A stretch of 24,000 nt of DNA from Stellaceae bacterium. Its GTDB lineage: Bacteria > Pseudomonadota > Alphaproteobacteria > ATCC43930 > CGMCC-115725. A program made the position numbers and the translations under genes. This document shows positions 312 through 20,342 of the stretch, piece by piece (the stretch's first letter is position 1; every line of letters starts with the position of its first letter). The stretch is from NCBI GenBank assembly GCA_035491935.1, contig DATJJW010000061.1:1-24000 (forward strand). The letters are read 5' to 3'. The notes beneath the pieces are model-generated. The model had not been told where the DNA came from. It ran no database searches and saw only the letters and a list, made by a program, of their open reading frames with translations.

Positions 312-383
312 GGCTTCCGCGCCTCCCCCTACGGGGATGAAATGCCGCAGCGCGGCCTATCACCTAGGGAGAGGAGAGCGCAG

Positions 384-599
384 ATGCGCAAGGTTGCAGT
401 TCTCGTGGTCGCCGGCCTCATGATTGCCTCCCTGTCCGGCTGTGTCGCCTATCCCGCGCCGGGCTATTACGCCGCGCCGGGATATTATGCGCCAGGGTAT
501 TATGCGCCGGGATACTACGGCTATTACGGCCCGAACGTCGTCGTCGGTGGCGGCTATTGGGGGCATGGTGGCTGGGGTCACGGTGGTTGGCACCATTAG
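384..599 (+). CDS. small lipoprotein with tandem PGYYA and GHGGW repeats
   Basis: ATG at 384 is preceded by GGGAGAGGAG. The product begins MRKVAVLVVAGLMIASLSG|C, a signal peptide plus LSGC lipobox. The mature part is YPAPGYYAAPGYYAPGYYAPGYYGYYG...GGGYWGHGGWGHGGWHH. The ORF track's longer start at 342 adds a non-signal N-terminus. Confidence 0.6.
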   Translation: MRKVAVLVVAGLMIASLSGCVAYPAPGYYAAPGYYAPGYYAPGYYGYYGPNVVVGGGYWGHGGWGHGGWHH

Positions 600-3200: not shown

Positions 3201-4367
3201 ATGGTGAATGATAAACGGCGACCGTCGCAATTGTCCGCGGATGATTCGAGCCGTTACATCAAGGAAGCCGTAGCCCGACGTTCTCCACCGCCGCCGACAT
3301 CCGACCCCTCGTTCATCGTCGGCAACAGTCCGCAGATGCTCGAGGTTTTCGACCGCATCAGGCGATTTGCGCCCTATGAATTGCCGGTCCTGATCACTGG
3401 CGAAAGCGGCACGGGCAAGGAACTGGTCGCCAAGGCCATCCACGAACGATCCGGCCGGGCGTCGGGTCCCTTCGTCGCCGTGAATTGCGCCGGCATGCCT
3501 GCCACCCTGATCGCGTCGGAGCTGTTTGGCTATGAGAAGGGGGCCTTCACCGGTGCGCTCGCCCGAAAACGCGGGCTTGTCGAGCAGGCGGCGAATGGCA
3601 CGCTGCTCCTGGACGAGATCGGCGACATGCCCTTCGATCTCCAGGGCCATTTGCTGCGGTTCCTGCAAGAGGAAGAGATCGTCCGCGTCGGCGGCCATGA
3701 ACCGGTCAAGGTGAGCGTCCGCGTGATCGCGGCGACCAACGTCAAGATGGCCGATGCCGTGGCGGCCGGGCGTCTGCGCGAGGATCTGTTCTACCGCCTC
3801 AACGTGCTCAGCCTGCATCTGCCGCCGCTGCGCCTGCGCGCGGGGGACATTCCGATCCTGGTGAATTATTTCCTGGAGACGATCGCGCGCGAACTGCATC
3901 GGCCGAAGCCGCAGATAAGCCCATTGGCCGTCGCCGCGCTGGAAGCCCATCGCTGGCCCGGCAACATACGCGAGCTGATCGCCACGCTGCGTCGTGCCAT
4001 CGTGCTCTGCAACGACGATTTGATCGAGACGGGCGACCTCGGTATGGAATTCGCCGAAGCGCCATCCAGCCAGCCGATCAAGCTCATGCCCGACCGGCCG
4101 CGTCCCGGATCGGAAGAGGAGCGCGCTTTGCTGCTCGATACGCTGGGCGACCACGGGTGGAACATCACGCGCTGCGCGCAAGTGCTCAACGTTTCCCGCG
4201 TGACGCTCTATCGCATGCTCGAGCGCCAAGGTCTCAATGTCAGCGATGAGGGCAAGAGCCCCGGTCTCGCCCGCGGCCGGACCGGCATGCGCCCGGCACC
4301 CATGGGGTTGACGACGCGCGCCGAAGGCAAGCCGTCCTACCCGCTTCTACGCCCCGACGGCATCTGA
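3201..4367 (+). CDS. sigma-54-dependent transcriptional activator (bEBP) with AAA+ and Fis-type HTH domains and no N-terminal sensory/receiver domain
   Basis: ATG at 3201 follows CAGGAGAGGG. Motifs present: Walker A GESGTGKE, the sigma-54 contact loop GYEKGAFTGA, DEIGDM (Walker B), REDLFYRLNV, and C-terminal HTH NITRCAQVLNVSRVTLYRMLERQGL. Only about 45 aa precede the AAA+ core. Confidence 0.9.
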   Translation: MVNDKRRPSQLSADDSSRYIKEAVARRSPPPPTSDPSFIVGNSPQMLEVFDRIRRFAPYELPVLITGESGTGKELVAKAIHERSGRASGPFVAVNCAGMPATLIASELFGYEKGAFTGALARKRGLVEQAANGTLLLDEIGDMPFDLQGHLLRFLQEEEIVRVGGHEPVKVSVRVIAATNVKMADAVAAGRLREDLFYRLNVLSLHLPPLRLRAGDIPILVNYFLETIARELHRPKPQISPLAVAALEAHRWPGNIRELIATLRRAIVLCNDDLIETGDLGMEFAEAPSSQPIKLMPDRPRPGSEEERALLLDTLGDHGWNITRCAQVLNVSRVTLYRMLERQGLNVSDEGKSPGLARGRTGMRPAPMGLTTRAEGKPSYPLLRPDGI

Positions 4368-4392
4368 GCCGCGCTGTATCAGCGGCGTAATG

Positions 4393-4409
4393 GTTAATGT
4401 AAAGTTAAC
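4393..4409. promoter_or_regulatory. candidate upstream activator sequence (GTTAAT-N5-GTTAAC / GTTAA-N7-TTAAC dyad)
   Basis: Dyad GTTAAtgtaaagTTAAC lies about 115 bp upstream of the -24 element, the usual bEBP UAS distance. Related GTTAACG motifs occur at 2868-2873 and 2974-2979, upstream of the EBP gene. Confidence 0.3.
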
Positions 4410-4457
4410 AAGAAAAAATGAACGGCGACACCATGCGCGACATGGAAAAATAACGCT

Positions 4458-4469
4458 TAATGCGTTGAT
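4458..4469 (-). promoter_or_regulatory. IHF-like site between the putative UAS and the sigma-54 promoter
   Basis: The minus strand reads gATCAAcgcaTTA, matching WATCAANNNNTTR except for the first base. It sits in an AT-rich tract about 45 bp upstream of the -24 element. Confidence 0.3.
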
Positions 4470-4510
4470 CCCATTAGAATATCTCCTCGGCGTCACTCTC
4501 CGAAAAGCTC

Positions 4511-4526
4511 TGGCATATCCCTTGCT
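4511..4526 (+). promoter_or_regulatory. sigma-54 (-24/-12) promoter
   Basis: cTGGCATatcccTTGCTa compared with the consensus YTGGCACG-N4-TTGCW. GG and GC have the correct spacing. The site is 83 nt upstream of the ATG at 4609 and immediately downstream of a bEBP gene. Confidence 0.75.
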
Positions 4527-4608
4527 ATTTCCCTTCGAGCGTACTTTGGCGGGTAGGTCACCGGCCGAACAGGACGCCGAACTCAACGGGAGAAATGGGA
4601 GAATCGAT

Positions 4609-5664
4609 ATGCGTAAATTCTTTCTTTTGACGGTGTCTGTGTTCGCTATGACCAGCGTTGCCGCATACGCCGACGAGCATAACGGCGGTAACAATAACGG
4701 CAACAATGGTGGCGACCCCGGCAAGAGCCATACGCCGCCGAGCCTGGAGCAGTACCTCTCGGTCGCGGTCGCGGTGAACTATGCCGATTCGTCTGACAAC
4801 GACCATTCGCTCTCGAACGGCCAGAAGAACTCCGCTCAGATCGGCTCGTCGTTCCAAGGGGCTGAAGGCGTCTCCAACCAGAACCAGAATGCCGGCGCCA
4901 ACAGCGCGCTGCAGAACTCGCTGTCGCTGGCCTATGTCCAGGGCTGCGCCTGCGGCACGACCGTCGGCGGCGGTTCCAAGGATGGTTCGAGCGGTTCGAT
5001 CGGCGATGCGGCGGCCTTTGCCGCGGCCCTGAATTTCGGCTCGATCGAGGAAGCCGGTGGTGTCCATATCGACGACCCGCACAGCTATCATTCGGCGCCG
5101 ACTTCGGCATCGGCGACGATCAACAACGGTGCCTATAACGGCTTCACCGGCGCGGCGCAGGTGAACCAGAATGCCGGTGCCGGCTCGCTGCTGCAAAACG
5201 CCACGGCGCTGGCCTCGGTCAACCCGATCTCCGGCACGATCGACCAGACCAAGGTGGCACTCGGCCTCGCGCTCAATGACGGCTCGGTCACGGACAACGC
5301 GGTTTCCAACGACCAGCACAACACCACGAGCGCCATCGACGGCTCGTTCAACAACATGAAGGGTGTTGCGAACGTCAACCAGAACGCGGCCGCCAACTCG
5401 CTGCTGCAGAATTCGACGGCGATTTCGTCGATCGAATACTGCAACTGCGCGGCGACCGATCTCAGCGCTTCGGCGGCCCTCAGCGCCAATATCGGTAATG
5501 TGAACGACAACAGCTTCAGCGCCACCAATGGCTCGAACGCCACCACGATGAACGGGTCGTTCAACGGCTCGCAGGGCGTGATGCAGATCTCGCAGAACGC
5601 GGGCGCCAACAGCCTGCTGCAAAATGCAGCTTCGGTGGCCGTCATCACGCAAGTCGCGCACTAA
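4609..5664 (+). CDS. secreted Asn/Gln/Gly/Ser/Ala-rich four-repeat protein; candidate major fibre/amyloid subunit (FapC-like architecture)
   Basis: ATG at 4609 follows GGGAGAAATGGGAGA. Signal peptide is MRKFFLLTVSVFAMTSVAAYA|DE. There are four imperfect repeats, each ending GxxGVxxVNQNAGANSLLQNxxA. The protein is 351 aa and almost devoid of charged or aromatic residues. The ORF-track start at 4390 lies upstream of the sigma-54 promoter and was rejected. Confidence 0.8.
   Translation: MRKFFLLTVSVFAMTSVAAYADEHNGGNNNGNNGGDPGKSHTPPSLEQYLSVAVAVNYADSSDNDHSLSNGQKNSAQIGSSFQGAEGVSNQNQNAGANSALQNSLSLAYVQGCACGTTVGGGSKDGSSGSIGDAAAFAAALNFGSIEEAGGVHIDDPHSYHSAPTSASATINNGAYNGFTGAAQVNQNAGAGSLLQNATALASVNPISGTIDQTKVALGLALNDGSVTDNAVSNDQHNTTSAIDGSFNNMKGVANVNQNAAANSLLQNSTAISSIEYCNCAATDLSASAALSANIGNVNDNSFSATNGSNATTMNGSFNGSQGVMQISQNAGANSLLQNAASVAVITQVAH
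4756..5661 (+). repeat. four imperfect ~70-90-aa protein repeats (R1-R4) within the major subunit gene
   Basis: Core motifs: NQNAGANSALQN (DNA 4876-4920), VNQNAGAGSLLQN (5161-5202), VNQNAAANSLLQN (5374-5415) and SQNAGANSLLQN (5587-5628). Each repeat starts with an alternating hydrophobic strand: AVAVAVNYA, AAFAAALNFG, VALGLALNDG, ASAALSANIG. Confidence 0.8.
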
Positions 5665-5695
5665 GTCCGTCTTCGGCTGCATCCCTTCACAGCCA

Positions 5696-5721
5696 CCGGC
5701 CCCTCGATCCCGAGGGGCCGG
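5696..5721 (+). other. perfect GC-rich stem-loop 1 after the major-subunit gene
   Basis: CCGGCCCCTCG-atcc-CGAGGGGCCGG, an 11-bp perfect stem with no U-tract. Confidence 0.5.
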
Positions 5722-5747
5722 GGCCGGAAGAAGGGAAGGCTCCCGCG

Positions 5748-5790
5748 TACCCCGGCGGCTCGGCCGCCGGGGTATCTCTTCCGGTTCTGA
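5748..5790 (+). terminator. stem-loop 2 / candidate partial (attenuating) terminator between the major and minor subunit genes
   Basis: TACCCCGGCGGC-tcg-GCCGCCGGGGTA (12-bp perfect stem, 5748-5774), followed by the pyrimidine/T-rich TCTCTTCCGGTTCT. Confidence 0.45.
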
Positions 5791-5807
5791 GAGAAGGAAT
5801 TGGCGCG

Positions 5808-6128
5808 ATGACGAGAAACATCCGGGTGCTCACCGCCATGGCCGTCGCGGTGGGAATGCTGAAGCTTCCGGTGATTGCTTATGCCGATCCTCTACCTGTT
5901 CCGCCCGTCTCGCTGAGCGATCTGCAAGACAGCGCCGCCAAGGGCCTGCCGGACAATTTGAACTCGGCACAGGTCTCGGCCAATTCCGTGGGCACCAACA
6001 CGGTGACGGGCATCATCAGCAATGCCGGCTCACTCAACAACAATAGCGGGCTGACCACCGTCCTGCAGAATACCGGCAACAATTCGCTGTTCCAGACCTC
6101 GACGGTCATGAACATCACGATCCATTAG
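5808..6128 (+). CDS. small secreted single-repeat paralogue of the major subunit (candidate nucleator/minor subunit)
   Basis: Signal peptide is MTRNIRVLTAMAVAVGMLKLPVIAYA|DP. The mature part ends SLNNNSGLTTVLQNTGNNSLFQTSTVMNITIH, which aligns with SFNGSQGVMQISQNAGANSLLQNAASVAVITQVAH of the major subunit. RBS AGAAGGA. Confidence 0.75.
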   Translation: MTRNIRVLTAMAVAVGMLKLPVIAYADPLPVPPVSLSDLQDSAAKGLPDNLNSAQVSANSVGTNTVTGIISNAGSLNNNSGLTTVLQNTGNNSLFQTSTVMNITIH

Positions 6129-6151
6129 CCGAAGGTTGAGGAGGTAGCGCG

Positions 6152-6859
6152 ATGCTGCGACCGATACGCCTCATGCTTGCCTGCCTTTGCGGCGGTCTCG
6201 GCCTGGCGGGGATCGTCGCTTCGGCTTATGCCGGCGACATGACCCTCACCAGCGAGATAACCGGCTCGACGGCGTTCCATGTGCCCGTGAAGAGCTTCAA
6301 GGAATTGAAGTTCGTGCACACCTTGCATCAGCAGGTCGATTATTCCTGCGGCGCAGCGGCGATCGCGACCTTGCTGACATATTCCTACGGCAAGCCCGTG
6401 GCCGAGCGGACCGTGTTGCAGGACATGCTCGACCACGGCGACAAGCAGGTCATCCAGACCAAGGGCTTCTCGCTGCTCGACATACGCAACTACCTTGCCC
6501 GGCAGGGTCTGCAGTCAGGCGGCTACCGGTTGCCGCTGGACAAGATCCCCGAGGTCGCCGTTCCCGGCATCGTCCTCATCAACCACAATGGCTACAACCA
6601 CTTCGTCGTGGTCGACGGGTTCAAGGATGGCCGCCTGCTGCTGGCCGACCCGTCCTTGGGCGCCCGGACCGTCGATGTCGACACGTTCAAGCGCGAATGG
6701 ACGGGGGTCTATTTCGTGATCCTCACCGGCGCCGACGACGCCAGGCGCAAATTCAATCTCAAGGAGGATTGGTCGCTTCAGGGACATGGCACCTGGGACC
6801 GGTTCCGCGACACGTTCGACCTGGCGCGGCTGAGCTTCAAAAGCGCTGATGCATTCTGA
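6152..6859 (+). CDS. periplasmic stand-alone C39 family cysteine peptidase (FapD-like)
   Basis: GAGGAGG RBS. Signal peptide ends ...IVASAYA|G. Catalytic elements: Gln/Cys region HQQVDYSCGAAAIATLLTY, His region NGYNHFVVVDG, Asp in LLLADPS. No ABC transporter domains are attached. Confidence 0.8.
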   Translation: MLRPIRLMLACLCGGLGLAGIVASAYAGDMTLTSEITGSTAFHVPVKSFKELKFVHTLHQQVDYSCGAAAIATLLTYSYGKPVAERTVLQDMLDHGDKQVIQTKGFSLLDIRNYLARQGLQSGGYRLPLDKIPEVAVPGIVLINHNGYNHFVVVDGFKDGRLLLADPSLGARTVDVDTFKREWTGVYFVILTGADDARRKFNLKEDWSLQGHGTWDRFRDTFDLARLSFKSADAF

Positions 6860-6873
6860 TTGGGGGCAAGACC

Positions 6874-7632
6874 ATGAGAATAAGCCATGCTCTCTATCCC
6901 GCGGTCGCAGCGTTATCCCTGTTGGTGATGCGCGACGCCTATGCGGATGTTCCAGGCAGATCCGGCCCGGCGCCCAAAGCCGTCGATCTCTTCGACTATT
7001 ACGCGCCCGGTGTCGTTCCCGGGCCGAAGGCGAGCGTCCATGAGGCCGCGGCGAGTACCCGGTTATCCGTCCAGCCGGCGCCTGTCCAGTCGGTGTTTGC
7101 CCAGTCAGCGCCCGTCCAGTCAGCGCCCGTCCAGGCAACACCTGCCCAATCGGCACCCATCCAATTGGCGATGGCGAACGAGATACCGGCCGACCAGCTG
7201 GGCGATATCCGTGGCGGCTTCTCCCTGCCCAGCGGCATGGAGATCAGCTTCGGCTTCGACATCGCCACACGGGTCGGCGGCGATGTCGTGCAGCAATTGA
7301 GCGTGCCGATGACGAATGTGCCGGGCACGGGTTCCTCGGTGCCGCTATCCGTGCTGTCGCAGGGGGCGTCGAGCTCCGTTCAGCTCTCGCTTGGCTCCGC
7401 GGCGCCCGTATCGGTGTCCTCGCTCGCCAATACCGGCCTCACCTCGATCACCACCACGCTGGGTGCCGGCGGGATCTCGTCGCTCATCCAGAACCAGGCG
7501 AACGGTCAGGTCATCCAGCAGACCCGCGTGCTCGACGTGTCGATCAGCGGGCTTACGCAATCCCTGGCACAGCAGGCCGCGCACACCATGATGGTCAATG
7601 CGCTCGCGGCCGCTTCCATGCCGCGTCATTGA
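6874..7632 (+). CDS. secreted protein with an xAPxQ pentapeptide array, an internal double-glycine motif and a degenerate QN repeat (position equivalent to FapE)
   Basis: Signal peptide ends ...LLVMRDAYA|DV. The Ser/Gly/Thr/Gln-rich C-terminal half includes GGISSLIQNQANGQVIQQTRV. There is a 14-nt gap to the C39 gene. GC3-rich frame. Confidence 0.7.
   Translation: MRISHALYPAVAALSLLVMRDAYADVPGRSGPAPKAVDLFDYYAPGVVPGPKASVHEAAASTRLSVQPAPVQSVFAQSAPVQSAPVQATPAQSAPIQLAMANEIPADQLGDIRGGFSLPSGMEISFGFDIATRVGGDVVQQLSVPMTNVPGTGSSVPLSVLSQGASSSVQLSLGSAAPVSVSSLANTGLTSITTTLGAGGISSLIQNQANGQVIQQTRVLDVSISGLTQSLAQQAAHTMMVNALAAASMPRH
7075..7164 (+). repeat. six tandem 15-bp units encoding PAPVQ SVFAQ SAPVQ SAPVQ ATPAQ SAPIQ
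   Basis: Direct reading of 7075-7164. Two adjacent units (TCAGCGCCCGTCCAG) are identical. Confidence 0.85.
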
Positions 7633-7640
7633 GGGACGAG

Positions 7641-7961
7641 ATGCAGCGCTTTCCGTACATTTCCAAATACGCCGCCAGGTGGGTCGCCCGCCTGACGCTC
7701 GGCCTGCTTTGCCTGTTGCCGTTCCAGCCGGCAAGGGCGGCGGATGGCGTGGTCGAAGTCGCCACGCCGGTGATGCCGATAACCGACAAGCCGGTGCCTG
7801 TCGAAGACCTGGCAGGACAGGCCGCGCGCGGTACCCCGCCGGGCCTGCCGGTCCTGCAGGAGAAACCCAAGCCGACCATCCGGCTCTGGGATGAAGTGAG
7901 TATTAGCCACGCCCTACCCAATCAGGGTACCATCAATTCAACAACGATGACGGTCCATTAA
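7641..7961 (+). CDS. small exported protein of unknown function (cluster accessory)
   Basis: ATG at 7641 follows GAGGGACGAG. Signal peptide is ...LGLLCLLPFQPARA|AD. The middle is Pro-rich. The C-terminus GTINSTTMTVH resembles the ...STVMNITIH end of the 5808 product. The TTG at 7629 in the ORF track is less likely. Confidence 0.6.
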   Translation: MQRFPYISKYAARWVARLTLGLLCLLPFQPARAADGVVEVATPVMPITDKPVPVEDLAGQAARGTPPGLPVLQEKPKPTIRLWDEVSISHALPNQGTINSTTMTVH

Positions 7962-7982
7962 GATCGTAGAGGAACCTTGGCC

Positions 7983-8483
7983 ATGATTACGACGAACATC
8001 TGGCGTTTCGCGGCAATCACTGGACTTTTCCTGCTCTGCCAATGCTCTGAGCAGAGCCAGCAAGCAAACAGCGGGCGCATCGCCGCCCCATCATCCAACG
8101 CAGCGAAGATATCGGATCCGTCCGGGCCGAGCCTGCTCCAAGAGCGCGGCAGCAAGCTCGCCATCGGCGAATATCGTCTCCTGGTCACGGGCAACACCTT
8201 GTTCCGGCCGTTGGCCAGCGGCGGCGAGACGGCGATCTACATCGCCCCCGATGGCGACCAGAAGATGCTGCTGCGCACCGCCGACGGGCGCAGCGGTACC
8301 GATAACGGACATCAGACCGAGCGCGGTTCGCTGGCCTGCTGGCAGTGGCAAAAGGCCGGTGCGGGCAGGATTCTGTGCTTCCAGCCCTATTGGAACGGCA
8401 GGGTTCTGACCATGGTGGAAACTTCGGGGGCCGTACAGCCAGCCCAATTCGTTGTCCAGAAGGGCAATTCAGCGTCTCTTTGA
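7983..8483 (+). CDS. exported (possibly lipo-)protein of unknown function (cluster accessory)
   Basis: AGAGGA RBS. N-terminus MITTNIWRFAAITGLFLLCQCSEQ is a signal peptide with a non-canonical lipobox. Four Cys residues in total. The start could instead be the TTG at 7977. Confidence 0.6.
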   Translation: MITTNIWRFAAITGLFLLCQCSEQSQQANSGRIAAPSSNAAKISDPSGPSLLQERGSKLAIGEYRLLVTGNTLFRPLASGGETAIYIAPDGDQKMLLRTADGRSGTDNGHQTERGSLACWQWQKAGAGRILCFQPYWNGRVLTMVETSGAVQPAQFVVQKGNSASL

Positions 8484-8583
8484 ACTGATTTCCGGGGCAC
8501 GTCAAACAGCCGAAATCGATGCCTACTGGGGATGGGTGACGTCTTCACGCCATTCCGCCAGATCGAGCGTTGGGGGAACAGTG

Positions 8584-9996
8584 ATGGGCAAGAAAATTCA
8601 CCGTTGGGCCACCTTTGTCCTTCTGGTCGCTGCCGAGCTTCCTTGGGCGGGAGCGGCGTCGGCACAGGCCGTGACGGCGAAGGATTTCGACGAGCTGCGC
8701 ACGCTGCTGCGTCGCCAGCAGCGCCAGATCGACCAGCAGGCCCAGCAGTTGCACGAGCAATCGAACGAGCTAAGGGCGCAAACCCGTCAGATCCAGGCGC
8801 AGCGGCGCCAGCTCGACCAGTTGCAGGGGCACCCGAATGCCCAGGGGCGGAAAAGACTGGCGGGTTCGACGGGCACGGCGGTGGTGGCAGCTCCCGTCGT
8901 ATCGCCGTCCCCGCAGGCCGCCACGCCGCAACCATCTGCCGAGGTGGTGCGTGCCCAAGTGGCCGAGAACCCGGAGGTTGCCCGCGAACGCGAGCGCGAG
9001 CAGCAGAACCGCATCGCCCAGACCAATACCAGCCTGGCGCGCACCGGCGGCGTGCTGACCCAGAAGGGGACTTTGCTGATCGAGCCGTCGCTCGAATACG
9101 ATTACCAATCGCAGCGTCAGGCCGTGGTGAGCGGTTTCACCATCATTCCCGGCATCACCTTCGGCAACATCAACATCACCAAGACGCAGCAGAGCACCCT
9201 GACCCAGGCGATGACGTTCCGCTACGGGGTGACCGACCGGCTGGAGCTTAATGTCCGCGTGCCCTTCGTCTATACGACGGCGTCGACCACCACCGGCAAT
9301 ATCACCCAGAACGCGCAACCGATCACGGTGCAGTCCGAAGGGCATTCGCTGGGCGACGTGGAATTCGGCGGCAGCTACCAGATCAATTCCGGTCAGCAGG
9401 GATGGCCGATCTTCGTCGGTAATCTGCGGGTAAAGACGATCACCGGGCGCGACCCCTTTTCCGTGCCGATCTACACGATCAACGATCCGAACGGTGCGTT
9501 CCTGCAGGGTATCCAGAAGGAGACGCCGACGGGCACCGGCTTCTATTCGGTCGAGCCGAGCATGACGGTGCTGTATCCGAGCGACCCGATCATCCTGTTC
9601 GGCAATCTGCGCTACATCCACAACATACCGCGCACCGTCAACGTCCAAAGCAGCACCGGCGACGCGCCGACGCCGACCAGCCTGCATCCCGGCGACGGCA
9701 TCGGCGCCAATTTCGGCTTAGGTTTCGCCTTCAACGAGAAAGCGTCGCTCAGCCTGAGCTATGAGGAAGTGCATGTCTTCAATTCGTCGAGCAACCACGT
9801 GTCGATCGGCGGGTCCAGCTATGATTTGGGAACACTCAATTTCGGCCTCGGCTATCAGCTCACGCCGAAGGTCAGCGTGAATCTCAGTGCCGGGATCGGC
9901 GTCACGCCTGATACCCCGGCGGCCAAGATCCTGCTCTCCGTCCCGGTCCACCTGCCCCTGTTCGGGCCGGCGGTGGGCGCCAATCATTCGTCCTGA
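8584..9996 (+). CDS. outer-membrane beta-barrel protein with an N-terminal coiled coil (FapF-like / MetA-pathway-type barrel)
   Basis: ATG at 8584 follows GGGGGA. Signal peptide ends ...AGAASAQA|V. A 7-heptad coiled coil spans residues 35-80, followed by a Pro/Ala-rich linker. The C-terminal ~300 aa show alternating beta-strand patterns (LLIEPSLEYDYQS, LELNVRVPFVY, GDVEFGGSYQI, LSLSYEEVHVF, LNFGLGYQLTP). The ORF-track start at 8452 overlaps the previous gene and lacks a signal peptide. Confidence 0.75.
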   Translation: MGKKIHRWATFVLLVAAELPWAGAASAQAVTAKDFDELRTLLRRQQRQIDQQAQQLHEQSNELRAQTRQIQAQRRQLDQLQGHPNAQGRKRLAGSTGTAVVAAPVVSPSPQAATPQPSAEVVRAQVAENPEVAREREREQQNRIAQTNTSLARTGGVLTQKGTLLIEPSLEYDYQSQRQAVVSGFTIIPGITFGNINITKTQQSTLTQAMTFRYGVTDRLELNVRVPFVYTTASTTTGNITQNAQPITVQSEGHSLGDVEFGGSYQINSGQQGWPIFVGNLRVKTITGRDPFSVPIYTINDPNGAFLQGIQKETPTGTGFYSVEPSMTVLYPSDPIILFGNLRYIHNIPRTVNVQSSTGDAPTPTSLHPGDGIGANFGLGFAFNEKASLSLSYEEVHVFNSSSNHVSIGGSSYDLGTLNFGLGYQLTPKVSVNLSAGIGVTPDTPAAKILLSVPVHLPLFGPAVGANHSS

Positions 9997-10023
9997 TTTC
10001 AACGTCATCCGAGGAGCGATGCC

Positions 10024-10512
10024 ATGCCCGTTCATCATGACAATGCAGATATCGGCGACAGCACGATCTCCAGTAGTTGGCGACGCGCAAGGCGGCGACG
10101 CCTGCGCATCCTGCTCGCCGATGGCGATCTCGTTCACATGGAACTGCTCAGCATGATGCTCGAGCCCGATCATGCCGTGATCGGCGCGCTGGCCGAAGGG
10201 GCCTATGTCGTCGAGATGATCGCGCGGGCGAAGCCCGATATCGCCATCATCGACATCGGCATGCCCGGTTTCCGAGGTATAGCGGCGACGTGGCGTCTCC
10301 AGCAGATCGCCCCCGAGACGAAGCTGGTCGTCCTGACGACGGATGCCAGGTTCGAATGCATCCGCGGCGTCCTCAGTGCCGGTGCGATGGCCTATCTGGT
10401 CAAGCCGGTGTCGGTCGCGGAACTGCACAAGGCCATCGCTTTCGTCGCGCAAGGCGGAAAATATCTGCCGGCCTCGATCGCCGGGGGGAAGCCGGACATC
10501 CTCATGCAGTAG
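10024..10512 (+). CDS. stand-alone response-regulator receiver (REC) domain protein with NarL/FixJ-type REC and no output domain
   Basis: GAGGAG RBS 7 nt upstream. Receiver motifs: RILLADGD, PDIAIIDIGMPG (phospho-acceptor Asp), KLVVLTT, AMAYLVKP. The protein ends soon after the 'GGKYLPASIA' linker with no HTH. It starts 27 nt after the barrel gene. Confidence 0.8.
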   Translation: MPVHHDNADIGDSTISSSWRRARRRRLRILLADGDLVHMELLSMMLEPDHAVIGALAEGAYVVEMIARAKPDIAIIDIGMPGFRGIAATWRLQQIAPETKLVVLTTDARFECIRGVLSAGAMAYLVKPVSVAELHKAIAFVAQGGKYLPASIAGGKPDILMQ

Positions 10513-17527: not shown

Positions 17528-17552
17528 GTTCGGAGGAAGCCGGCCGGACCTA
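17525..17552. terminator. possible bidirectional stem-loop between convergent genes
   Basis: TAGGTTCGG-N10-CCGGACCTA (9-bp stem with one G-U pair) spans both stop codons. No U-tract. Confidence 0.25.
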
Positions 17553-18941
17553 GGTGAGACAGGCGAGCAGCGTCCTCACATCCGCTTCCCTCTCCAGCCG
17601 GTTCACTGTGGCGATGGCACGCTCCGTCTTGTCGGCGGGCCAGCCGGCGAAGCCGGCGCAGTCGCGGAACTTGTCCTCGATTTCGGCCTGGGTCATCGGG
17701 TTGGTCTTGCTGCCCTTGCCGTAATCCAGCTTGCCACCGACCTGGCGGCCGTCCTTCAGCGCGAGATCGACGAAGGATGTGACGATGGTGTGGCCGGCCG
17801 CACGCCCTTCGGCCTCGCCGAAAGTGTCGTATTGCACGCGGCCGATGAGATCCTGGACGTCGGGCCGGCGCACGAATTCGTCGGTGAAGGATTTGAGGCC
17901 GAGTTTGCGGTCGACGGCCAGGGCCGCGACGCAGAATTCCAGGCTGAACTTCGCCTCCAGCTCGGTCTGCGGCCGGTGGTGCAGCAGCGTGCGGCTGATG
18001 TTCTCGCTGGTCTTGATGGTGATCCTGGCGATGTCCTGGGGCTTGATGTCATGCGTCTCGACCAGCGAGAGCATGAGCGTCATCGCCGGGTGGCTGAGGC
18101 TGCCGGTCGGCCACGGCTTCAGCCAGATGCCACGATCGACGAAGGCCCAGGGCTGGCCCAGGCGGTCGACGATGCGTTCGGGCTCCCAGCCGCCGCCCTC
18201 GGCCTGGAAGAAGCCACGCGGCGATTCCAGGATCGAGGCGGCGGCAGTGAAGCCCATGCGGGTAAGGTCGGCGGCGACGATGCCGGTCTCGCCGGACCGG
18301 CCGGCATGGAAGGGCTTCATCATGGTGCCGAAATTCTCGGACAGGCCGGCCGCCTGGCTGGCGGCGATGCCGAGGCAGTTGCGTATCGCGTCCGGCGGCA
18401 GGCGGTAGAGCTTGGCGACCGCGGCGGCGGCACTCAGCAGCCCGCAGGTGCCGGTCGAATGATAGCCGTTCAGGATGTGGTTCGGATGCGTCGCGTCGAA
18501 CAGCTTGCAGGCCAGCTCGGCGCCGATCTGATAGGCCAGCAGCACATCGATGCCCGAGGCGCCGCAGGATTCGCCCGCGGCCAGCAGCGCGCTCAGCACT
18601 GCGGCGGTCGGGTGAATGCCCTGGAATTTGCCGGTCGCCGCCTGCTGCGTGTCGTCGTAGTCATCGACATGCATCGCGGTGCCGTTGATCAGCGCGGCAA
18701 AGCGCGGCGGCAGCTTGGCGCCGCCGCCGAGCACCGAGGCGGTGGGGCCCGTCACGCCCTCGAAGGGCTGCACGTACCGGCGCAGGATGTCGACGGTTGG
18801 GGTGTGGGCGCCGGCAAGCGCGCAGCCCAAGGCATCGAGGATGGAGGCCTTGCCGAGCCGTGCGACCTCCGCGGGCACGTCGTCATAGCGGGTCTTGTGG
18901 ATGAAATCCGCGACATAGGCCGTCAGACCGAATTGCGACAT
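17550..18941 (-). CDS. MmgE/PrpD family protein (2-methylcitrate dehydratase-like)
   Basis: N-terminus YVADFIHKTRYDDVPAEVARLGKASILDALGCALAG and its length (463 aa) are typical of MmgE/PrpD proteins. Confidence 0.85.
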   Translation of the reverse strand: MSQFGLTAYVADFIHKTRYDDVPAEVARLGKASILDALGCALAGAHTPTVDILRRYVQPFEGVTGPTASVLGGGAKLPPRFAALINGTAMHVDDYDDTQQAATGKFQGIHPTAAVLSALLAAGESCGASGIDVLLAYQIGAELACKLFDATHPNHILNGYHSTGTCGLLSAAAAVAKLYRLPPDAIRNCLGIAASQAAGLSENFGTMMKPFHAGRSGETGIVAADLTRMGFTAAASILESPRGFFQAEGGGWEPERIVDRLGQPWAFVDRGIWLKPWPTGSLSHPAMTLMLSLVETHDIKPQDIARITIKTSENISRTLLHHRPQTELEAKFSLEFCVAALAVDRKLGLKSFTDEFVRRPDVQDLIGRVQYDTFGEAEGRAAGHTIVTSFVDLALKDGRQVGGKLDYGKGSKTNPMTQAEIEDKFRDCAGFAGWPADKTERAIATVNRLEREADVRTLLACLT

Positions 18942-18944
18942 GGC

Positions 18945-20342
18945 TCAGGCCCTCATTGCGTTGACGATGTCACGGATTGTCGTGCCTTCCAGGCCGCGAA
19001 CCAATTCGATGATCCGTTCGGCGCCGGATGCCCGCAGATGGTCGGTCATCAGCTTGCGCGCCTTGTGCTCGACCTCGTCGCGGGTCATCGGATTGTCCGG
19101 CGTGCCGCGCACCGCGCCGGTATGGTGCGAGAAGATGCGGCCGTCATGAGTCGTTACCTCCACCGTCGCCTGGCGTGGCGGTGGCGTGCGCGTCATCTCG
19201 GCGCTGGGCACCATCTCGATCTTGGCGCGCACGGCCAGCACCTCCGGGTCCTGCATGCGCGCATAGTCATGCGAGGAGCGGAGCGTCACGTCGCCATCGA
19301 CCCACATCAGCGCGACCAGATGCTGCATGCAGATTTCCGGCATGTGGCGGTTGCTGATGATCTTGGTTTCCTTGTCCGGCATGATGACGCGGATCCTGGC
19401 GAGATCCTTCGGCCGCAACCCGTGCTCGCTACGCAGCGCCAGCGAGGAATCGATCGTCGCCTGGATCGGAGATCCCACCGTCCATTTCTTTATCATGGCG
19501 CGCATGATCTCGAAGTCGTGGCCCAGGCCGCGGACCATCTCGGCCCGGTTGGGCTCGGGCGAGTAGCAGTCGAAGAAATTATGCTGGCCGTGGAAGGGAT
19601 CGCTGCCGCCGGTGAAGCCCGCCGCGACCATCGAGGCGGCGGCCGCGGCATTGCGCGCCGGGTTGCCGCCGAAGACGAAGCCTTTCTCGAAATGCTCGGG
19701 ATCGCGCATCCAACAGGTGACGCCGGCCGCCTGTTGGACCGCGAAGGAGAGCGCATAGCGCACCCGGCGCGGCTCGAAACCGTAAAGCGCGCTGCAGCCG
19801 GCCGTGCCGCCGAACAGGCCGCCGATGCTGTGCGGGCTGTGGAAGGCATTGTCGAGCAGCGCCTCGTCCAGCGCCATGGTCAGGCGGCAGCCGATATCGT
19901 AGCCCAGCACGATGGCCTTGAGGAAAGCCTCGCCACCGACATTGAGATTTTCGCCGATCGCCAGGATCGGCGGCAGGATGGCGCAACCCGGGTGCATGCG
20001 GGCGAGGTAATGCGAATCATCGGTCTCGCCGCCGCCGGCCAGCATGCCGTTGGCGAAGGCGGCATTGACCACCGAGGTCTTGAGGCCGGTGATGCCGATG
20101 CCGGCGTCGGGATTGCCGCCCAGTGACCGGACGTAGTCCAGCGCCACCCGGCCGGGCTTGAGATCGCGGCCGACCACGATGGCGGCCAGCGTATCGAGGA
20201 TGTGGTGCTTCGCCTTCTCGACCACCTCGGCCGGCAAGGCAAGTTGCTGCGAGCGGGCGATGTAGCCGCTCAGCTCGGCCATCATCGGCTCGATGTCGTC
20301 GGCGACGTCGTGCAGTGTTTCGCTTTGCGGTTCGTCGATCAT
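18945..20342 (-). CDS. MmgE/PrpD family protein (second, divergent paralogue)
   Basis: LSGYIARSQQLALPAEVVEKAKHHILDTLAAIVVG, 465 aa. Only a 3-nt gap separates it from the downstream paralogue. Confidence 0.85.
   Translation of the reverse strand: MIDEPQSETLHDVADDIEPMMAELSGYIARSQQLALPAEVVEKAKHHILDTLAAIVVGRDLKPGRVALDYVRSLGGNPDAGIGITGLKTSVVNAAFANGMLAGGGETDDSHYLARMHPGCAILPPILAIGENLNVGGEAFLKAIVLGYDIGCRLTMALDEALLDNAFHSPHSIGGLFGGTAGCSALYGFEPRRVRYALSFAVQQAAGVTCWMRDPEHFEKGFVFGGNPARNAAAAASMVAAGFTGGSDPFHGQHNFFDCYSPEPNRAEMVRGLGHDFEIMRAMIKKWTVGSPIQATIDSSLALRSEHGLRPKDLARIRVIMPDKETKIISNRHMPEICMQHLVALMWVDGDVTLRSSHDYARMQDPEVLAVRAKIEMVPSAEMTRTPPPRQATVEVTTHDGRIFSHHTGAVRGTPDNPMTRDEVEHKARKLMTDHLRASGAERIIELVRGLEGTTIRDIVNAMRA

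Follow-up and report, generated by a model that had tools for sequence, protein, structure and literature searches.

A gene cluster was examined in a stretch of 24,000 nucleotides (nt) from a Stellaceae bacterium (contig DATJJW010000061.1, positions 1 to 24,000; hereafter the window), which an initial annotation had described as a Fap-like, secreted functional-amyloid or fibre cluster under σ54 control. By a taxonomy look-up, the Stellaceae are now the Allostellaceae, in the order Rhodospirillales of the Alphaproteobacteria. Positions 3201–10512 hold nine open reading frames (ORFs), all on the forward strand, encoding in order a σ54 activator, a large and a small repeat protein, a C39 peptidase, a 252-residue low-complexity protein, a 110-residue exported protein, a lipoprotein, an outer-membrane barrel, and a stand-alone receiver (REC) protein. 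From the large repeat gene to the REC gene, consecutive genes are separated by 143, 23, 14, −4 or 8, 15, 100, and 27 nt. The fourth gap has two values, as the gene of the 110-residue protein overlaps the preceding gene by 4 nt if it starts at a TTG and follows it after 8 nt if it starts at the ATG at 7641. The barrel ORF reaches upstream to 8452, and a signal peptide is obtained with the ATG at 8584. The nine co-directional genes with their sizes and spacers, and the σ54 promoter, had been listed by the initial annotation, and the ORF listing and a promoter scan agreed with it on all of these.

A genome scan with the alignment of the large repeat protein yielded 25 related loci, mainly from Alphaproteobacteria. 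The hosts are Roseomonas, Neoroseomonas, Caldovatus, Acidiphilium, metagenome-assembled genomes (MAGs) of Acetobacteraceae and Rhodospirillales, two Acidithiobacillus genomes, and one unclassified proteobacterial MAG. The subunit is 37–39% identical in the two Acidithiobacillus genomes and 31% identical in the unclassified MAG.

The large repeat protein (351 residues; 4609–5664) consists of a Sec signal peptide followed by four repeats of about 75 residues with the core G-V-x-x-V-N-Q-N-A-G-A-N-S-L-x-Q-N. CxC motifs are found after repeats 1 and 3. Both the four repeats and the CxC motifs, already noted in the initial annotation, are kept in most homologues, not in all (alignment A1). The Pfam family PF27129 (FapBC) is assigned to the identical database protein and to most of about 97 homologues; the assignment was taken from precomputed annotations and the name from gene tables. 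The NCBIfam models of FapB (2e-7) and FapC (1.4e-4) also match the protein, both below their curated cut-offs. The repeat core, which had been listed as a departure from Fap, is less foreign than claimed, as it already lies within PF27129. A monomeric AlphaFold2 model computed with 41 homologues from alignment A1 is all-β and β-solenoid-like, with four repeat units and a predicted local distance difference test score (pLDDT) of 83.6. Its best fold match in the PDB is the FapC fibril 9u4u (E = 4e-3, template modelling (TM) score 0.35, probability 0.6). The remaining matches are β-helix adhesins, ice-binding proteins, and pectate lyases, with curli CsgA among the weak ones. Nothing was found in the PDB with a single-sequence phmmer search, and a profile search with the family returned FapC as the sole match, at E = 5.

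The small repeat protein (106 residues; 5808–6128), of the FapB type, has a signal peptide, a leader-like segment SLSDLQDSAAKG, and then a single Fap repeat. It is conserved in all 25 loci. In phmmer searches it is linked with FapC-like proteins, and also with the small subunits that the clusters of Cupriavidus, Vibrio, and Acidithiobacillus encode. The leader-like segment reads ELxxxxGR[GA] in the FapB-like relatives and LDDVRGG in the Cupriavidus homologue. A single-repeat FapB has already been reported in Vibrio (PMC3792158). The large and the small protein are both built on FapB/C-type imperfect N/Q/G/A repeats, as the subunits of a Fap system are.

In the exported FapC-like, FapB-like, and 110-residue proteins, the last residue is almost always basic (H, R, or K), and it directly follows a β-strand-like segment (…NITIH, …NITLR, …TMTVH). 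This terminal residue could be an export or capping signal.

The 143-nt spacer between the two subunit genes contains two GC-rich hairpins (stem-loop cluster at 5696–5786, forward strand), in agreement with the initial annotation. Folding of positions 5660–5810 gave a minimum free energy of −88.6 kcal/mol (z = −4.6), with an 11-bp stem at 5696–5721 and a 13-bp stem at 5747–5775, the latter followed by TCTCTTCC; there is one terminator-like match. Each of the 18 loci tested has, directly behind its major subunit gene, a perfect 11–15-bp GC-rich hairpin (−26 to −39.5 kcal/mol); position and structure are shared among them, and the sequences are unrelated. These hairpins are probably a partial terminator or an mRNA-stabilizing element that would raise the ratio of subunit to accessory proteins.

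The C39 peptidase (235 residues; 6152–6859) is a stand-alone enzyme with a Sec signal peptide, a catalytic cysteine (Cys66) in a DYSCGAAA segment, and a histidine in an NHF motif, which are the attributes of FapD as far as they can be read from the sequence. It matches the NCBIfam models of FapD (4.3e-44) and FilB (2.2e-32), and Pfam Peptidase_C39 (9e-21). The outer-membrane protein (470 residues; 8584–9996) consists of a signal peptide, a Q/R-rich coiled coil, a linker, and a barrel with a PTG motif. With phmmer, residues 145–455 align to the crystallized FapF (PDB 5o67, 5o65, and 5o68; E = 6e-31) with the PTG motifs in register. The NCBIfam FapF model (5.5e-46) is matched over positions 14–417 of 420, coiled-coil region included, so that the coiled coil, linker, and PTG barrel of FapF are all represented by homology. 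In FapF itself, the barrel has 12 strands and a plug. Lower-scoring matches are to NCBIfam FilC (3e-18) and Pfam Phenol_MetA_deg (5e-6).

The 252-residue protein (6874–7632) has a signal peptide, a low-complexity Pro/Ala/Gln region, a signature motif, and a C-terminal N/Q repeat of the Fap type. Because the NCBIfam FapE model, which does match Aeromonas FapE (2e-12), misses this protein, a broader FapE profile was built. It started from the FapE of Aeromonas caviae and its close relatives (alignment A2), and an exhaustive search of representative sequences gave 203 proteins with E ≤ 0.001, of which 136 were full-length. A word-indexed search with the same seed had retrieved Aeromonas-like proteins only. 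Among the 2861 ORFs of the related loci, the broad profile ranks the 252-residue family directly behind true FapE (E = 1e-6 to 0.1). Comparison of the family with the 136-sequence profile by hhalign gave a probability of 96.5% (E = 8e-10) over 36 columns, compared with 9.8% for a narrow, Aeromonas-only FapE profile. The C-terminal repeat of the family aligned with the FapB-type repeat with a probability of 95.9%. The FapE C-terminus has been described as resembling amyloid repeats (PMC5557850). The gene directly follows that of the FapD-type peptidase, as fapE does in the Aeromonas locus. On the grounds of the short signature, the single repeat, and this position, the protein is read, at the profile–profile level only, as a divergent FapE.

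The signature is sDxELxxMRG[RK][FY]..g...FG[VI] in canonical FapE and PxxELxxMRGGF.lPgG..vaFGFdI in the 252-residue family. The 20 FapE-like proteins collected all have the pattern L-x3-[MLI]-R-[GA]-G-F (15 by a stricter regular expression, the other five by eye), which in the window protein reads QLGDIRGGF (7195–7221, forward strand). Of the 136 representatives of canonical FapE, 125 have [LM]RG[RK][FY], with a median position close to residue 52, and in none does GG take the place of G[RK]. C39 peptidases usually cleave after GG or GA, with an ELxxI-type leader before the cut. It is plausible that the motif of the FapE-like protein is a FapD cleavage site, the cut falling after GG. In Pseudomonas, the substrate of FapD was undetermined, and FapE alone yielded no peptides from its first ~70 residues (PMC5557850). 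A leader-like segment LGxxRGG is also present in 10 of the 15 members of the 110-residue family, the window protein having ARGT. Since hhalign of this leader with the FapE motif gave only 39%, a leader shared by the two proteins is kept as a suggestion; the statistics for such a leader are weak in the FapB-like family as well. A wider proposal is put forward tentatively, and may well prove wrong: the FapE-type proteins, and probably the FapB-type and 110-residue proteins, would carry a periplasmic double-glycine leader homologous to the canonical MRG[RK][FY], its cleavage by FapD would license export through FapF in all Fap systems, and in this branch the lipoprotein would replace FapA as a helper in the periplasm.

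Two further genes lie between those of the FapE-like protein and the barrel. The first (7629–7961) encodes a small exported protein of 110 residues from the TTG, or 106 from the ATG, with a signal peptide, a leader-like segment, and an invariant [LFIV]WDE[IVL]. By position, the family is present in 14 related loci and the window, and the freshwater Roseomonas subgroup is without it; no family match was found in Pfam and NCBIfam scans. The second (7977–8483) encodes a 168-residue protein with a lipobox cysteine, a Pro/Ala-rich linker, and a domain of ~110 residues with two invariant cysteines. The classic lipoboxes of its homologues (LLAAC, LAAGC) align with its Cys21. The lipoprotein is present in the alphaproteobacterial loci and not in those of Acidithiobacillus. 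No relative was found in Pfam or the PDB, and an AlphaFold2 model computed from the single sequence was unusable (pLDDT 35). That two extra accessory genes distinguish the cluster from Fap was a point of the initial annotation that held, as both are conserved in the branch. With FapA absent, the most economical guess is that the two proteins assist secretion or nucleation from the periplasm or the outer membrane.

The activator (388 residues; 3201–4367) matches Pfam Sigma54_activat (2e-68), AAA_lid_14, and HTH_8, and has a GAFTGA loop and a Fis-type helix-turn-helix (HTH). As its AAA+ domain begins at residue 39, there is no N-terminal sensor or receiver domain, which agrees with the earlier description of a domain-less activator. 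Across the AAA+ domain and the HTH it is 44% identical to the bacterial enhancer-binding protein (bEBP) adjacent to the fap genes of A. caviae. The latter has ~130 additional N-terminal residues, and the fap-adjacent activator of Acidithiobacillus sp. (L027) likewise has an N-terminal domain, both unlike the window protein. An orthologue of the activator adjoins the cluster in 12 of the 25 related loci.

The predicted promoter TGGCATATCCCTTGCT (4511–4526, forward strand; TGGCAT-N5-TTGCT) is followed after 82 nt by the start codon (ATG) of the major subunit gene. It is the sole match in the 24 kb with one mismatch to TGGCAC-N5-TTGCW. Looser matches to the −24/−12 consensus are not above chance in number in the window, so the weight of the promoter comes from its position and its conservation: TGGCAY-N5-TTGC[TG] is found upstream of the orthologous subunit gene in 14 of the 25 loci, Acidithiobacillus included. 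The near-consensus promoter of the initial annotation was thus upheld. Two copies of TAAYGSTTAATG (4388–4399 and 4451–4462, strand not assigned), each overlapping a short palindrome, are 63 nt or six helical turns apart, ~50–125 nt upstream of the −24 element. From their position only, they are candidate enhancer sites that the activator may bind.

This mode of control had been listed as a departure from Fap, and that claim had to be dropped. In Pseudomonas fluorescens, fapA–E are transcribed from an RpoN-dependent −24/−12 promoter, next to the bEBP gene brfA, and BrfA is a c-di-GMP-sensing bEBP required for fap transcription (PMC9207406; PMC13101488). A bEBP also adjoins the fap loci of Aeromonas and Acidithiobacillus. 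An RpoN-type promoter with an adjacent bEBP is therefore a documented Fap feature, and the window cluster has it.

The REC protein (162 residues; 10024–10512; Pfam Response_reg 1e-19) has the phospho-acceptor aspartate and the threonine and lysine all present. Its gene is probably co-transcribed with the cluster, given the 27-nt gap, and the protein may have a role in the system. However, a REC gene is adjacent in only one of the 25 related loci (L022), where it lies upstream of the bEBP gene; it does not belong to the conserved genes of the cluster, contrary to its listing as a distinguishing part. The idea that it is the split-off N-terminal domain of a BrfA-like activator was rejected, no similarity to the N-terminal domain of the Aeromonas bEBP being found.

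The run of FapC-like, FapB-like, FapD, FapE-like, and lipoprotein genes is kept in all alphaproteobacterial loci with enough downstream sequence. The placement of the barrel and activator genes varies by locus: before the subunit gene, after the lipoprotein gene, or divergent. Such shuffling argues for functional linkage rather than an inherited neighborhood. In the freshwater Roseomonas-like MAGs (L004–L011, L019, and L020), the barrel gene is on the opposite strand, and there is no adjacent bEBP gene, no −24/−12 element, and no gene for the 110-residue protein; this subgroup has apparently changed its regulation and one accessory component. In three loci (L018, L023, and L024), the activator gene is preceded by a second FapC-like gene that lies on the opposite strand; the subunit gene is therefore duplicated in Acidiphilium-type loci.

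The ORFs of three other records were read directly from the sequence. The megaplasmid of Cupriavidus metallidurans CH34 (NC_007974.2, 64738–79649) contains an unannotated Fap-like cluster, with a 511-residue Gly-rich protein ending in one Fap repeat, a 162-residue single-repeat protein with the LDDVRGG leader, a FapD, a protein in the FapE position with an RGGFDV motif, and a 490-residue FapF. On an Indioceanicola profundi plasmid (NZ_CP030127.1), a FapF-like barrel gene (36% identity) adjoins an opposite-strand ORF of 1612 residues that is weakly FapC-like, possibly a further variant in the Alphaproteobacteria whose subunit is giant. The A. caviae record (NZ_AP026896.1), labeled a plasmid and, at 4.9 Mb, evidently a chromosome, has a canonical fap locus in the order bEBP, FapB, FapC, FapD, FapE, FapF, with the bEBP gene divergent and a transposase-like ORF between it and fapB.

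The window cluster shares with Pseudomonas Fap the FapBC-family repeat subunits, the periplasmic C39 peptidase FapD, a FapE-type protein with an ELxxMRGx[FY]…FG motif and an N/Q repeat, the coiled coil and PTG barrel of FapF, and the RpoN-dependent −24/−12 promoter with a neighboring enhancer-binding protein. It differs in that the major subunit has four repeats with short linkers and CxC motifs instead of three repeats, the minor subunit has a single repeat, the FapE motif ends in GG instead of G[RK], two extra genes are conserved, the host is an alphaproteobacterium, and FapA is missing.

The nearest relatives outside the Alphaproteobacteria are the loci of Acidithiobacillus ferriphilus (L025) and Acidithiobacillus sp. 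(L027). Their four-repeat subunit, FapD, and FapF are 37–39%, 45%, and 35–39% identical to those of the window, respectively. They have likewise a single-repeat small subunit, a σ54 promoter, an adjacent bEBP, a FapE-like protein (ELAKLRGGF), and a protein of the 110-residue type (LRQARGG). Unlike the window, they have no lipoprotein homologue, their barrel gene lies on the opposite strand and its product lacks a long coiled coil, and the bEBP has an N-terminal domain. Acidithiobacillus has been described as having a FapC with 4–8 repeats and a reduced FapB (Dueholm et al. 2013, PMC3792158). The supplement of Rouse et al. 2018 (PMC6173800) lists FapBC, D, E, and F for A. caldus, and FapD and FapF only for A. 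ferrivorans, Acidiphilium cryptum, and Cupriavidus metallidurans; the main text adds co-localized fapD/fapF pairs in five further phyla. The window-related Acidithiobacillus loci appear to be of the A. ferrivorans kind, with D and F only in that survey, and not of the A. caldus kind.

Fap was considered restricted to Beta-, Gamma-, and Deltaproteobacteria by Dueholm et al. 2013 (PMC3792158). No relevant paper came up in literature searches on Fap in Alphaproteobacteria, Acidiphilium, or Rhodospirillales. As the surveys give only the FapD/FapF pair for Acidiphilium and the searches found no account, the branch is taken to be undescribed in papers, although Pfam captures its subunit. The initial annotation had called the cluster an undescribed branch of secreted-fibre systems: the first part of this stands, and the second is narrowed, as the branch is one of Fap and not a new kind of system.

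Taken together, profile, structural, synteny, and literature comparisons support the initial view of a Fap-like secreted-fibre cluster under σ54 control. The barrel, peptidase, and subunits match Fap models, the repeat protein has FapC as its best fold match, five core parts are homologous to FapB/C, FapD, FapE, and FapF, and the promoter and activator accompany a conserved gene set. The cluster is thus likely to be an operon for the biogenesis of functional amyloid (or of fibres) of a divergent Fap type, the host being a member of the Rhodospirillales (Stellaceae); the products of the operon would form amyloid.

Several observations weigh against this interpretation. Every NCBIfam Fap score falls far under the equivalog cut-off (150 bits against 330 for FapD, 157 against 700 for FapF, and 31 against 190 for FapB), which makes the proteins remote homologues and, by the curated standard, no orthologues. 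In line with such scores, database records label the cluster proteins "hypothetical protein" or "transporter". The NCBIfam FapE model passes over not only the window protein but also its Acidithiobacillus, Cupriavidus, and Vibrio counterparts, and the window protein reaches only ~15 bits with the broad profile, so that the predicted link to FapE stands on the 36-column motif plus one repeat. The fold match of the major subunit to FapC is weak, as its TM score of 0.35 and probability of 0.6 indicate. The gene order is C-B-D-E-x-x-F, compared with A-B-C-D-E-F in Pseudomonas. There is no FapA: no product matches a FapA model, and the subunit gene is the first of the operon. FapA loss is, for its part, the commonest Fap variant, and FapA is non-essential (PMC3792158; PMC6173800). 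Finally, fibres or amyloid properties have been shown experimentally in no member of the branch.

A Fap-type machinery might also export a folded β-solenoid adhesin or another non-amyloid surface fibre, perhaps stabilized by disulfides of the CxC motifs. The confident monomeric solenoid-like model, the adhesins, ice-binding proteins, and pectate lyases among its fold matches besides FapC, and the conservation of the CxC motifs in most homologues, though not all, speak for this. FapC fibrils, however, are built of stacked repeat layers, so a solenoid-like monomer is no argument against amyloid. Moreover, the repeats belong to Pfam FapBC, and the cluster has a single-repeat minor subunit and a FapE-type protein, in common with the amyloid-forming Fap systems. 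A folded adhesin is accordingly regarded as unlikely. It is very improbable that the small proteins are the main products, exported as bacteriocin- or signal-like peptides with double-glycine leaders. The C39 peptidase and the GG-type motifs in three small exported proteins would fit such a function, but the peptidase carries a Sec signal and is not fused to an ABC-transporter domain, and the putative substrates have Sec signals of their own, with the motif lying internally, 45–185 residues into the predicted ORFs (some over-extended upstream). The dominant product is, in addition, the 351-residue repeat protein, and the barrel is FapF-like.

That the barrel is a COG4313/Phenol_MetA_deg-type channel for the uptake of hydrophobic compounds, lying by chance beside unrelated secreted proteins, is scarcely credible. 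The Pfam Phenol_MetA_deg match (5e-6) can be explained in this way, and a common fold and the PTG motif have been noted for FapF and the COG4313 channels (PMC6173800). FapF is nevertheless matched better by ~40 orders of magnitude, with the N-terminal coiled coil covered as well, the barrel accompanies the C39 and repeat genes in most loci with enough flanking sequence despite the shuffled order, and no aromatic-degradation genes are nearby in the window. Channels of this type such as Pput2725, which have the same barrel fold and PTG motif as the window protein, differ from it in their uptake function, in having no coiled coil, and in having no reported C39 partner.

Two other fibre systems were compared. 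In curli (CsgA/B with the CsgG/E/F machinery), Sec-exported major and minor N/Q-rich repeat subunits are secreted unfolded through the outer membrane and polymerize outside, and this working mode is comparable to that proposed for the window cluster. Curli secretion, however, relies on a nonamer of the CsgG lipoprotein instead of a FapF-type barrel and involves no C39 peptidase; none of the nine products has a curli match in Pfam or NCBIfam at E ≤ 0.1. The Fil system of Acinetobacter, a putative pilus system, has, like the window, a stand-alone C39 peptidase (FilB) and a FapF-like outer-membrane barrel (FilC). The FilB and FilC models score 113 bits against a cut-off of 475 and 66 against 630, respectively, both below their cut-offs and weaker than the Fap models. 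No similarity to Fil subunits turned up in the NCBIfam scan of the window products, the Fil loci themselves not being examined, and a literature search for the Fil system found nothing. Curli, bacteriocin export, and hydrophobic-compound uptake were each rejected.

If the cluster is a Fap-type operon, the sensor-less bEBP would activate the σ54 promoter at 4511–4526. The operon would then be transcribed, and the hairpins after its first gene would shift expression toward the major subunit and away from the accessory genes. Sec would carry every structural and accessory protein across the inner membrane, and in the periplasm the FapD-type peptidase would cut the FapE-like protein at ELxxxRGG|F, and perhaps also the FapB-like and 110-residue proteins. 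The FapC-like (four repeats), FapB-like (one), and FapE-like (one) proteins would leave unfolded through the FapF-type coiled-coil/barrel channel and polymerize outside the cell into a stacked cross-β (β-solenoid-like) fibre. The lipoprotein and the 110-residue protein would act as branch-specific helpers in place of the missing FapA.

On the same premise, a complete and conserved Fap-type system reaches the Acetobacteraceae and Rhodospirillales, in acidophiles, freshwater Roseomonas, and soil-type MAGs. As its closest outside relatives are in Acidithiobacillus, an exchange of the system between acidophile lineages is suggested. The cleaner double-glycine motif of the FapE-like protein would make the cut site of FapD concretely testable, and the two accessory proteins, having no known relatives, would be candidates for new functions in amyloid secretion.

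The neighboring genes in the window are unrelated to the cluster: an SSF transporter, DUF6544/DUF6920, LysR, PanE, an enolase-superfamily gene, a methyl-accepting chemotaxis protein (MCP), and two PrpD genes. At 342–599 (forward strand), upstream of a pair encoding DUF3311 and a sodium:solute symporter (857–2625), an ORF of 85 residues resembles an odd Gly/Tyr/His-rich small lipoprotein: its signal is of the lipoprotein type (LSGC), and YYAPGYY repeats in tandem and a GGWGHGGWGHGGWHH tail follow. At 17550–20342 (reverse strand), two tandem paralogues of the MmgE/PrpD family (463 and 465 residues), likewise unrelated to the cluster, lie downstream of a Cache/HAMP chemoreceptor gene.

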